This document shows, in pieces, positions 28,563 through 30,569 of a stretch of 64,000 nucleotides of DNA. Source of the DNA: Candidatus Thorarchaeota archaeon (GTDB lineage Archaea > Asgardarchaeota > Thorarchaeia > Thorarchaeales > Thorarchaeaceae); assembly GCA_046758445.1 (NCBI GenBank), contig JBHIAE010000003.1, positions 1 through 64,000 of the forward strand, given 5' to 3'. A program made the translations under genes and the position numbers. Within the stretch, counting starts at the first letter, position 1. Each line of letters begins with the position of its first letter. The notes below the pieces were generated by a model. That model was given only the letters and a program-made list of their open reading frames with translations. It had not been told where the DNA came from and did no database searches.

Positions 28563-29570
28563 TTGGGATTCGACATACTCTCGGACGGCCAAGCCATTAT
28601 GGAATCGTCAAGCTCAGAGCTTGAAAGGTCCATGGGGCTTGCATTTGATTCCAGACGAAGAGTCTTTGGAGATGAACTGCTGTGCTATAGCCCGACTGCT
28701 TATCCCTACAAGATATCTGATCACAAGCAATCAAGCCTTCACAACTTCATCTCTATCAGCGTCACGGGTACCTCTTGTTCTCTTGAATGTGATCATTGTG
28801 ATGGGCATCTCTTGAAGGCGATGAAACCGGCTCTCACACCCGAGGCGCTTGTCAAAAGATGCCAGGAGGTAGAAGCTCGCGGAGCTGAAGGCGTCCTAAT
28901 CAGCGGTGGGTCCGATTCCAAGGGGCATGTTCCACTGGACAGATTCGGTGAGGCTATCAAGACAATAAAGACTGAGCTCGGGCTGAAGGTTGTTGTCCAT
29001 ACTGGTCTTGTGACCGAAAAGACAGCACAGCTCTTGAAGGAAGCAGGAATCGATGCCGCTATGCTTGACATCATCGGCAACGAGCAGGTCGCACGGAGTG
29101 TCTATCACATAGAAGATGGCCCAAGGAGAATGAATGCCTCTCTTAGCATTCTTCGTGAGTCAGGGATTCCTACTGTGCCTCACATCTTGGTCGGTATCAA
29201 CTATGGCAAGATTGGGGGTGAGCTAGAAGCAATGCAGATGATCGCACAGAATGACCCCGCAGCAGTGGTTGTTATAGTTCTGAATCCTGTTAGAAGAACA
29301 CCGATGGAGTCTATCAACCCTCCTGCTCCTGAAGCCATTGGAAGGGTCATCACGGTAGCACGTCACGCGATGGAGAAGACACCCATACTCCTCGGTTGTG
29401 CACGGCCAATGGGGCAGCACAAGGTGGACTCTGACAAGTACGCAGTTATGAGTGGGGCAAACGGAATTGCCTACATAAGTCAGGCAGGCGTTGATTTTGC
29501 CAAGGAACGTGGGTTAGAGCCCGTCTTTAGCGACATATGTTGTAGTCTTGCCTATCAGATGTTCATGTAG
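28563..29570 (+). CDS. Radical SAM protein, archaeal lipoyl synthase LipS1-like
   Basis: SVTG..CSLECDHC, LISGG, GCARP and C-terminal CCS motifs. Confidence 0.75.
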   Translation: MGFDILSDGQAIMESSSSELERSMGLAFDSRRRVFGDELLCYSPTAYPYKISDHKQSSLHNFISISVTGTSCSLECDHCDGHLLKAMKPALTPEALVKRCQEVEARGAEGVLISGGSDSKGHVPLDRFGEAIKTIKTELGLKVVVHTGLVTEKTAQLLKEAGIDAAMLDIIGNEQVARSVYHIEDGPRRMNASLSILRESGIPTVPHILVGINYGKIGGELEAMQMIAQNDPAAVVVIVLNPVRRTPMESINPPAPEAIGRVITVARHAMEKTPILLGCARPMGQHKVDSDKYAVMSGANGIAYISQAGVDFAKERGLEPVFSDICCSLAYQMFM

Positions 29571-30108
29571 GCATCATGCGAACAGCCCGAGCTATGGTTT
29601 CGTAGCCCAAGTCAAAGAACCATAGTCCTACTGCACTTGGTAGGAAATCTGGCCACACAAGGGCGAGAAGCAGGACTGCCAGCTTAAGGGCAAATCTGTA
29701 GCGAAAGAAGGCCGCCACCCAAGGACTATTCCCTCCTTCTGCCCAGTCATTTCCTCGCTCATCGATAATTGCAGTCAATAGTAGAACTGTCAGAAGTGCG
29801 AGCCATTCAAACCATCTCGTTATGACTGGCACTCCAATCACAATCAAGACGACGCCGATCATTAGGAATCCCACGAGAAACTGTGGTCGGTTCACCTTGC
29901 CAGACAGGAGAACACCAATCACTATCGCTGTCAATAACACTAAATCCAATTCAGAAACAGTCATAATCAATCCGAAAAGTAGTCCTGACAGAGCGAGAGG
30001 TGCTGCTGCTAGATTGGGCCTGCCAAGCTCATCAAGCAGGTCGTCACCGAGCTTGAGTGTCAGACCGGCCAGCCAATATGACACATAGTAAAGAAGCCAC
30101 TCAAGCAT
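29563..30108 (-). CDS. Uncharacterised multi-pass membrane protein
   Basis: Hydrophobic helices with K..DD..DE and DE.GND acidic motifs. Confidence 0.75.
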   Translation of the reverse strand: MLEWLLYYVSYWLAGLTLKLGDDLLDELGRPNLAAAPLALSGLLFGLIMTVSELDLVLLTAIVIGVLLSGKVNRPQFLVGFLMIGVVLIVIGVPVITRWFEWLALLTVLLLTAIIDERGNDWAEGGNSPWVAAFFRYRFALKLAVLLLALVWPDFLPSAVGLWFFDLGYETIARAVRMMPT

Positions 30109-30169
30109 CTAAGATCTCCTTCCAGAAAGTCTTCAGATCTCTGTGATATACAGACGTGTCCACGGTGGA

Positions 30170-30241
30170 GGCTCCTCAGTCTAACTATGACTCGTCGCTG
30201 GACATTGCTGTCCTCAGATAGCCAATTGCATCATCGGAGCC
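30170..30241 (-). ncRNA. Box C/D guide sRNA targeting LSU rRNA helices 69-71
   Basis: Minus strand reads GGCTCC, ATGATG (C), guide, CTGA (D'), hairpin, GCGACGA (C'), guide, CTGA (D), GGAGCC. Guides are complementary to UAACUAUGAC and UAGCCAA; TTTTAT lies about 25 nt upstream. Confidence 0.8.
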
Positions 30242-30284
30242 TTGTCTGCATCAGTTGATTATCTGATAAAACTTAGTACCCCAC

Positions 30285-30569
30285 CTATAGGAGTACTACA
30301 GGAGTTCCTATGGCTTGGCCTGGGAGATTCGTTCGGAACTTCGCGCGAACAGCTCCGCCATTACCGTGAGGGCCAAGAACCTTTCCGAGGAACTCGCGTC
30401 CAGTTTCCGAGGACCAGCGCACCTTTCTGCCAACGAGAGTTGCTGCTTCTGCCCTTGTCTTGATGTTGTCAAACAAGAGGAGCACTTGGTTCGGGTTCTG
30501 CAGGTGTTTCCCTCTCCGATAACTTGTAACAACGCCCTTCAGACCTTTCTTGACCTCGGTTTTGGGCAC
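30285..30569 (-). CDS. rpl35Ae: 50S ribosomal protein L35Ae
   Basis: SYRRG...Q..NQ.L, GKV...HGN.G.VRAKF..NLPGQAIG. Confidence 0.95.
   Translation of the reverse strand: MPKTEVKKGLKGVVTSYRRGKHLQNPNQVLLLFDNIKTRAEAATLVGRKVRWSSETGREFLGKVLGPHGNGGAVRAKFRTNLPGQAIGTPVVLL

Follow-up and report, generated by a model that had tools for sequence, protein, structure and literature searches.

The canonical archaeal box C/D sRNA, for example M. jannaschii sR8, is built pseudo-symmetrically from a C/D and a C'/D' motif, has guides of 10-12 nt and specifies its targets by the N+5 rule (PMC6009581, PMC5062973), with one motif forming a K-turn and the other a K-loop (PMC6009581). In the large subunit (LSU) rRNA, helices 68-71 are a hotspot of archaeal methylation (helices 68, 69 and 71), with dense predictions around E. 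coli A1912 (PMC4644070). Double targets lying near each other are common in archaea (PMC4644070, PMC6009581), and ~45% of Pyrobaculum sRNAs direct both of their guides to nearby sites (PMC6009581). Two of the RNAs described from this hotspot, Sac-sR113 of Sulfolobus acidocaldarius and IHOsR91 of Ignicoccus hospitalis (Dennis et al. 2015, PMC4644070, Additional file 1), carry D guides of the form ...CAGAGUUAC(U/G)-CUGA, which are antisense to the helix 69 loop GUAACUCUG; their N+5 nucleotide, predicted from the sRNA sequences alone, is the second A of UAAC, i.e. E. coli A1913. The D' guide of IHOsR91, UCGGCAAGC, is antisense to the helix 71 strand GCUUGCCGA.

The same loop is modified in eukaryotes. 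Yeast 25S rRNA carries Am2256 in the helix 69 loop, guided by snR63 and located two nucleotides 5' of Psi2258 (PMC2794176); as Psi2258 is E. coli 1915, Am2256 corresponds to E. coli 1913. This methylation is conserved in human, and snR63 and U46 are listed as homologues (PMC2794176, PMC2780460), which bears out, for yeast and human, the remark in the initial annotation of the present locus that A1913 is 2'-O-methylated in eukaryotes. Box C/D sRNAs are under-annotated in archaea, low sRNA numbers have been reported in mesophilic archaea (PMC7994747), and we found no catalogue of Asgard C/D sRNAs in the searchable literature.

Here we describe a genuine, previously unannotated box C/D guide RNA of 74 bases on the minus strand (30242-30169) of a 64-kb window, the whole stretch of Thorarchaeota (Asgard) DNA that was analysed. 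It is a well-supported yet ordinary addition to a well-known RNA class. Taken as a whole, the locus is very probably best explained as a box C/D sRNA of ~74 nt with its own transcription, the D guide of which would be directed to E. coli A1913 and the D' guide most likely to C1934.

Anatomy of the guide RNA

A dual-guide box C/D sRNA had been proposed in the initial annotation, and every element described there is present at 30242-30169 (Table 1). All of its strings and coordinates agree with our minus-strand reading of 29900-30500, and its range, 30151-30271, also includes the TATA box.

Table 1 Features of the sRNA gene and its neighbours, listed in the direction of transcription.
Feature	Position in window	Strand	Conservation or remark
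Upstream neighbour, ribosomal protein L35Ae (eL33) gene rpl35Ae	30285..30569	-	PF01247, E = 1.7e-20
TATA box TTTTATCA, BRE-like aa(g/c) before	30264..30271	-	Centre ~26-27 nt before the terminal stem's first G
Terminal stem, 5' strand (A)GGCUCC, stem I of the C/D kink-turn	30236..30242	-	Covariation; GGCUCC = 30241-30236
Box C, AUGAUGc	30228..30234	-	UGA invariant, AUGAUG nearly invariant in 55 homologues
D' guide AAUUGGCUAU, 10 nt	30218..30227	-	Core GGCUA(U) nearly invariant, 5' part variable
Box D', CUGA	30214..30217	-	CCGA, CCUA or CGAA in a minority of homologues
Internal hairpin GGACA-GCAA-UGUCC, 14 nt	30200..30213	-	Covariation
Box C', GCGACGA, degenerate	30192..30198	-	GA core and last GA conserved
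D guide GUCAUAGUUAGA, 12 nt	30180..30191	-	UCAUAGUUA invariant in 55 homologues
Box D, CUGA	30176..30179	-	Conserved in 55 homologues
Terminal stem, 3' strand GGAGCC(U)	30169..30175	-	Covariation; GGAGCC = 30175-30170
Downstream neighbour, 181-aa ORF starting MLEW, no Pfam match	29563..30108	-	Start 60 nt past the sRNA

Boxes C and D lie near the 5' and 3' ends of the RNA, as is usual for the class, and the terminal stem that encloses them can gain a seventh pair from A30242 and U30169. Both box pairs are in exact kink-turn register: the stem abuts the GA of D or D', and opposite it lie a 3-nt bulge, G.A, A.G, pyrimidine-U and G-C. In the C/D motif the bulge is G30235-A-U, and G30232 and A30231 form sheared pairs with the GA of box D; in the C'/D' motif the bulge is A30199-G-C, followed by G.A and A.G. 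Of 34 sequences, 32 retain the G-C pair of the non-canonical stem, and two have U-A instead. The C/D kink-turn can thus be recognised at the sequence level from its register and from compensatory changes in the stem, the three-dimensional kink being predicted, and the internal boxes (CUGA, hairpin, AGC-GACGA) supply a second K-motif. Since the hairpin closes C'/D', this second motif would be a full kink-turn in place of the usual K-loop.

The spacers are 12 nt (D) and 10 nt (D'; 10-11 nt across the family), within the ~10-13 nt of the class, and the D' guide grows to 11-12 nt, (C)AAUUGGCUAU (30228/7-30218), when C30228 and G30229 of box C are counted. Some features depart from the consensus: box C ends in C and not in A (consensus RUGAUGA), box C' agrees with its consensus at only 5 of 7 positions, and the D' spacer of 10-11 nt is shorter than 12.

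Conservation and covariation in Asgard genomes

A BLAST search over 60 relatives returned one homologue in most members of the family (76-100% identity), and BLAST and pattern matches together gave 55 distinct homologues. The initial annotation had suggested a covariance search in Asgard genomes; run with a model built from the homologue alignment, it found the RNA in 24 of 26 sampled family genomes, always as a single copy (E about 1e-25), and one copy in the only genome sampled from the sister family (f2). Weaker single matches were obtained in four further families, f5 (12 of 13 genomes), f9, f18 and f20, whose homologues have the same layout, in which D', hairpin and C' precede a D guide directed to helix 69. 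Family f5 probably corresponds to Heimdallarchaeaceae.

Across the 55 homologues, box C (at its UGA), boxes D', C' and D (at their GA cores), the string UCAUAGUUA and the D' core GGCUA are invariant or nearly so. Variation is found in the D' guide towards its 5' end and in the sequence of the hairpin, which remains paired. This pattern is typical of a C/D sRNA, with boxes and D guide fixed and a hairpin that is free in sequence but paired. The two helices are paired in 92% of cells of this set, against about 43% (32-48%) for slid partners. Within the family, compensatory changes occur at 8 of 12 pairs, i.e. at four of seven in the terminal stem and four of five in the internal hairpin (94.5% of cells paired); a covariation score as high as the observed one came up in 0 of 500 shuffles. 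All seven pairs of the terminal stem (90.7% of cells paired) and all five of the hairpin (85%) show compensatory changes across Asgard families, in an alignment that was fitted to the covariance model and is biased towards structure by construction. The internal hairpin is kept in the Thorarchaeota, f5, f9 and f18 homologues, with a short loop instead in sister family f2 (L122).

Minimum free energy (MFE) folding of the sRNA alone was not significant (z = -1.1), as expected of a guide RNA. A pairing between the two guides in the MFE fold (UGGCU with AGUCA) was rejected, as the base opposite the invariant C may be G, A or U and no compensating change accompanies this.

The D guide and the tip of helix 69

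The genome has a single 23S gene (G000:C53:12049-15379), whose target segment reads CCGGGACUAACUAUGAGUCUCUUAAGGUAGCCAAAUGCC. Numbered from box D in the upstream direction, positions 2-11 of the D guide form 10 of 10 Watson-Crick pairs with 23S CUAACUAUGA (E. coli 1910-1919); the duplex (-12.8 kcal/mol) is the best site in the host 16S or 23S, and helix 69 is the best LSU site of the D guide for all 55 homologues. Guide position 5 faces LSU 2045, which is A1913 in the helix 69 loop in a global alignment to E. coli rrlH, so that the D guide combines an N+5 target with more than the complementarity of at least ~9 bp to its own rRNA that characterises the class. On this basis, the most likely role of the sRNA is to guide sugar methylation of a single adenosine at the helix 69 tip of the LSU rRNA.

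The initial annotation had named the A1913 equivalent in the helix 69 loop as the D-guide target. Both the 10-bp pairing with the host's own 23S and the rrlH alignment support this. Its extension of the pairing into UAACUAUGACUC does not hold, as the host reads UAACUAUGAGUC and guide position 12 falls in a G.G mismatch: the closing pair of the host helix 69 is C1910-G1920, and the G at position 12 stands opposite G1920. Nor does the host have GACUC, which had been taken for a eukaryote-like helix 69 variant; it reads GAGUC. Helix 69 of the sister-family genome G037 does read GACUC, and the G037 guide pairs with it.

Between Asgard families, guide and helix 69 change together. The Thorarchaeota family and f5 combine the helix 69 sequence CUAACUAUGA with the guide UCAUAGUUAG, and f18 combines GUAACUAUAA with UUAUAGUUAC, a difference of two compensated positions; f9 shares the helix 69 sequence of f18, and its guide ends in ...AUAGUUAC. 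In all four, A1913 is the nucleotide at N+5. No compensation between guide and target was seen within the Thorarchaeota family, where the targets are nearly invariant and the variants of G034 (helix 69) and G024 (helix 70) are uncompensated. In G034 (23S L090, sRNA L024), the closing pair of helix 69, C1910-G1920, has become A-U (C1910 to A, G1920 to U), and the guide has changed from G to A at position 2 and from G to U at position 12, i.e. to the new letters of the target and not to their complements, which shrinks the guide-target duplex to the 9-nt loop.

The D' guide and a model of the ribonucleoprotein

The duplex of the D' guide with the host 23S segment GUAGCCAA (E. coli 1930-1937) starts with a G.U at position 1 and is interrupted by an A.A at position 9, beyond which three further pairs overlap box C (-14.7 kcal/mol; LSU 2066 = C1934). 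Core positions 2-6 are Watson-Crick to the universally conserved UAGCC; overall the pairing at this site amounts to 6-8 bp in some relatives and to 9-10 bp in genera with UUUGGCUA(U/G). The D' guides of f5, f9 and f18 target the adjacent G1940 and G1945, matching lineage-specific forms of helix 71; in f9 and f18 the guide fits the helix 71 variant of its own family. We favour C1934 on account of the fit of the invariant core, the 9-10 bp in the UUUGGCUA genera and the neighbouring D' targets in the other families. The C1934 target of the initial annotation is thereby upheld in part: the core GGCUA(U) fits GUAGCC (E. coli 1930-1935), but there is the A.A mismatch at position 9, and a site at ~2404 pairs better.

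The rRNA segment itself differs among relatives. The f5 23S (L141 / L142) reads GGUAGGCAAAUG where Thorarchaeota have GGUAGCCAAAUG, E. coli position 1934 being G and not C, and the f5 sRNA aims its D' guide 6 nt further 3', at G1940, a case of a guide sliding along one rRNA segment. The G037 23S (L093, G037:C23:100708-103772) contains an insertion of ~790 nt at about 720-1500, directly after helix 69 (between ...GGGAGUAACUAUGACUCUC and GGCAGUAAUAAU...) and precisely in the interval that separates the two sites predicted as sRNA targets. A 10-bp hairpin forms its end, immediately before UUAAGGUAGCC; it has the appearance of an rRNA intron and includes, by eye only, a coding-like stretch before the hairpin.

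The proteins of the C/D ribonucleoprotein (RNP) are all encoded in the genome, fibrillarin (PF01269, 284.9 bits) beside Nop5 (PF01798, 226.6 bits) on contig C2 and L7Ae (PF01248, 91.1 bits) on contig C20. By the established archaeal C/D RNP model, L7Ae would bind the terminal C/D kink-turn and the stem-closed C'/D' kink-turn, and a Nop5 dimer, bridging the two K-motifs, would assemble on them together with two fibrillarin molecules. The 12-nt D guide would then pair with nascent 23S 1910-1919 (E. coli numbering), the closing base and loop of helix 69, and fibrillarin would 2'-O-methylate A1913, which lies opposite guide position 5 as numbered from box D. The D' guide would most likely pair 21 nt downstream, at GUAGCCAA, placing a methyl group on C1934, and a single RNP would hold the helix 69-71 segment during folding.

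This last step could also be the principal one. The RNP may be mainly an rRNA-folding chaperone for helix 69-71, with one or both guides non-methylating and the D' guide degenerate or 'orphan', a reading that we consider possible, though rather unlikely. The spacing of 21 nt between the targets would suit it, and a chaperone role of double guides has been proposed by Dennis et al. and Lui et al. (PMC4644070, PMC6009581); the complementarity of the D' guide is short and variable (6-10 bp), and some homologues have degenerate D' boxes. The register to A1913, however, is exactly N+5 in all families, even where guide and helix 69 have changed together, and the invariant positions of the D' guide are 2-6, those that flank the predicted methylation site. 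Chaperoning and methylation can, moreover, coexist.

A second alternative is the same C/D sRNA in which, in this genus, the D' guide would be directed to a variable hairpin loop near LSU 2537 (~E. coli 2404), a site that we take to lie near helix 88, or to both sites, which seems to us unlikely. The host sequence CUGGCCAAUUG pairs there with guide positions 2-12 continuously, with one G.U, at -15.8 kcal/mol against -14.7 kcal/mol at C1934, and it is the best LSU site for 30 of the 55 homologues, measured against the 23S of the window's genome; the mean over the 55 homologues against this 23S also favours it, a mean in which the window's own genus weighs most heavily. In G011 and G014 the loop reads AUAGCUAAUUG and again pairs with the guide over its full length. 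Against this, the complementarity is lost in G015, G024, G025, G029 and G034, and a site so variable among relatives does not explain why GGCUA(U) is invariant across the family. Guide position 3, always U, would form a wobble there but a Watson-Crick pair at C1934, where the UUUGGCUA(U/G) genera have their longer pairing and which the D' targets of the other Asgard families, G1940 and G1945, adjoin. From these pairings we would place roughly half of our confidence in C1934 as the D' target and a minor part in the ~2404 site in this genus, the remainder falling to a weak or non-methylating D' guide.

Genomic setting and transcription

The sRNA gene lies in a gap of 176 nt between two minus-strand ORFs, just downstream of the rpl35Ae stop codon. 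The linkage to rpl35Ae is also found in sister family f2, conserved C-terminal coding sequence stands upstream in the homologues, and the 'atgcttgagtgg' start recurs 3' of the sRNA in many relatives. Further on, a radical SAM / BATS-domain gene (biotin or thiamine-synthesis type; 28563-29570, plus strand) converges on the 181-aa ORF.

A promoter-like 'aa(g/c)TTTTATCa' is found at a fixed upstream distance in nearly all of the 55 distinct homologues. Archaeal promoter spacing of the size seen here fits a transcript that starts at the stem, and from this spacing the start would be expected there. No oligo-T tract follows the terminal stem on its 3' side; the 3' end presumably arises by trimming to the RNP, and read-through is possible.

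It is this possible read-through, together with the position between rpl35Ae and a conserved downstream ORF and the conservation of the rpl35Ae linkage at order level, that would speak for a cis-acting L7Ae-binding element instead of a free sRNA, located in the 3' UTR of rpl35Ae or in the leader of the downstream membrane-protein gene. We regard such an element as very improbable: the RNA has its own conserved BRE/TATA, positioned for transcription to start at the stem, the f5 homologue has an entirely different setting (flanked by genes for a zf-AN1/M50 peptidase and an FMN-dependent dehydrogenase), and a cis element would have no need of a 10-nt helix 69 antisense that is invariant and co-varies with that helix.

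Genome scans and the role of chance

When the 3.25-Mb genome was scanned strictly for RUGAUGN...CUGA, with both boxes present and a correctly placed terminal stem of 4 bp or more, 23 candidates emerged, compared with 9 from the reversed sequence, and the RNA at 30242-30169 was the sole candidate with both a 7-bp stem and a perfect 10-bp rRNA match. A scan for 9-mer rRNA antisense with adjoining boxes gave only noise (120 real against 85-109 decoy matches). The scan for full architectures gave 47 candidates, the distribution of whose rRNA matches was like that of decoys, except for the 30242-30169 RNA and a candidate at C21:36194-36243. By such simple scans there are very few convincing candidates, and no other convincing C/D sRNA was found by them in the genome, which fits either a mesophile with few guides or boxes too divergent for the patterns used.

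The candidate at G000:C21:36194-36243 (plus strand; L147 about 1521-1570) is compact and C/D-like, with a D' guide that matches LSU 580 over 12 contiguous bp. It was not accepted as an sRNA. It lies antisense inside a 207-aa ORF, and its relatives show a uniform identity of 72-77%, flanks included, which looks like conservation of coding sequence; it may be a chance occurrence within coding sequence or an antisense-embedded sRNA.

Outside the host genome, a degenerate 21-nt pattern covering the 3' half of the RNA (D guide, D box and stem) matched 51 contigs in 596 Gb of prokaryote genomes. Most were labelled Thorarchaeota or Promethearchaeota, with one Hermodarchaeota and a few 'uncultured archaeon', and none of the 51 carried a bacterial or non-Asgard label. 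Rfam found no family at gathering thresholds in the whole 64-kb window; its E-value mode gave only weak matches to eukaryotic SNORD families (SNORD83, 18.2 bits; SNORD46, 15.2 bits) plus a spurious GlmY. That box-like motifs should have come together by chance in this intergenic spacer has next to no probability, for although CTGA, TGATG and similar short motifs are common and decoy rRNAs at times match box-flanked 12-mers over 10 bp (for one decoy, at 2 of the 47 architectures), the idea is already refuted by the pattern search, the conservation, the covariation and the covariance-model counts, and is further countered by the promoter and by the single copies confined to Asgard genomes.

Comparison with eukaryotic and archaeal guide RNAs

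The nucleotide predicted for the Thorarchaeota RNA is the one methylated under the guidance of snR63 in yeast and of U46 (SNORD46) in plants and human (Rfam RF00218). The RNAs share a terminal stem with a C/D kink-turn, and the SNORD46 consensus D-guide string GUCAUAGUUA-nA-CUGA is common to both, which reflects the conservation of the target. The match to RF00218, at 15.2 bits against a gathering threshold of 40 (E = 1.7), leaves the Thorarchaeota RNA outside this family, and the identity of the predicted target, the helix 69 loop adenosine (yeast A2256 / E. coli 1913), is a functional likeness and not a sign of membership. SNORD46 is, moreover, ~100 nt long with a single guide, whereas the Thorarchaeota RNA has 74 nt, two guides and its own archaeal promoter. 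SNORD46 is intron-encoded.

Terminal stems are ordinary in archaeal sRNAs, so the stem does not make the RNA snoRNA-like, as had first been suggested. The eukaryote-like flavour seen in the initial annotation likewise recedes, given that the region is an archaeal hotspot (PMC4644070) and that Sac-sR113 and IHOsR91 have D guides of the same helix 69 type; with equivalent guides in Sulfolobus and Ignicoccus, the site provides no specific link between Asgard archaea and eukaryotes. It is conceivable, but improbable, that the helix 69 guide RNA with a second, stem-closed kink-turn forms one ancient orthologous lineage of Thorarchaeota, probable Heimdallarchaeaceae and other Asgard archaea that is directly ancestral to snR63/SNORD46; if so, the descent of at least one snoRNA could be followed across the boundary between archaea and eukaryotes.

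The RNA provides a well-anchored Asgard example of an under-annotated class, with its own promoter, a link to rpl35Ae, a single copy per genome, a range from Thorarchaeota to probable Heimdallarchaeaceae and a guide that co-varies with helix 69. It predicts Asgard ribosomes with Am1913 in the loop of helix 69, at the intersubunit bridge that contacts the A-site tRNA, a modification also present in eukaryotes and predicted for some Crenarchaeota. Annotation could be seeded with the alignment and the covariance model. Our understanding of how C/D sRNAs work is unchanged; the covarying second kink-turn and the phylum-level conservation with co-variation of guide and target are modest extras, the stem-closed C'/D' kink-turn being a small architectural point for studies of C/D RNP assembly.

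Among archaeal RNAs, Sac-sR113 and IHOsR91 share with the Thorarchaeota RNA the order C/D'/C'/D, spacers of ~12 nt and a D guide antisense to the helix 69 loop with A1913 at N+5, and the D' guide of IHOsR91 resembles those of f9 and f18 in being directed to helix 71. The Thorarchaeota RNA differs from both in its D' site, C1934, and in its longer terminal stem of 6-7 bp, and from Sac-sR113 in having a 14-nt hairpin, and with it a second true kink-turn, where D' and C' of Sac-sR113 are joined by a K-loop of 3 nt (UCA). The lack of similarity to either RNA outside the guide is compatible with shared ancestry or with convergence. Measured against the canonical archaeal sRNA, the Thorarchaeota RNA has the same pseudo-symmetric arrangement, guide lengths and N+5 rule, and its only structural departure is the stem-closed C'/D' motif, in which a covarying 5-bp hairpin and a 3-nt bulge make a K-turn of what is otherwise a K-loop.
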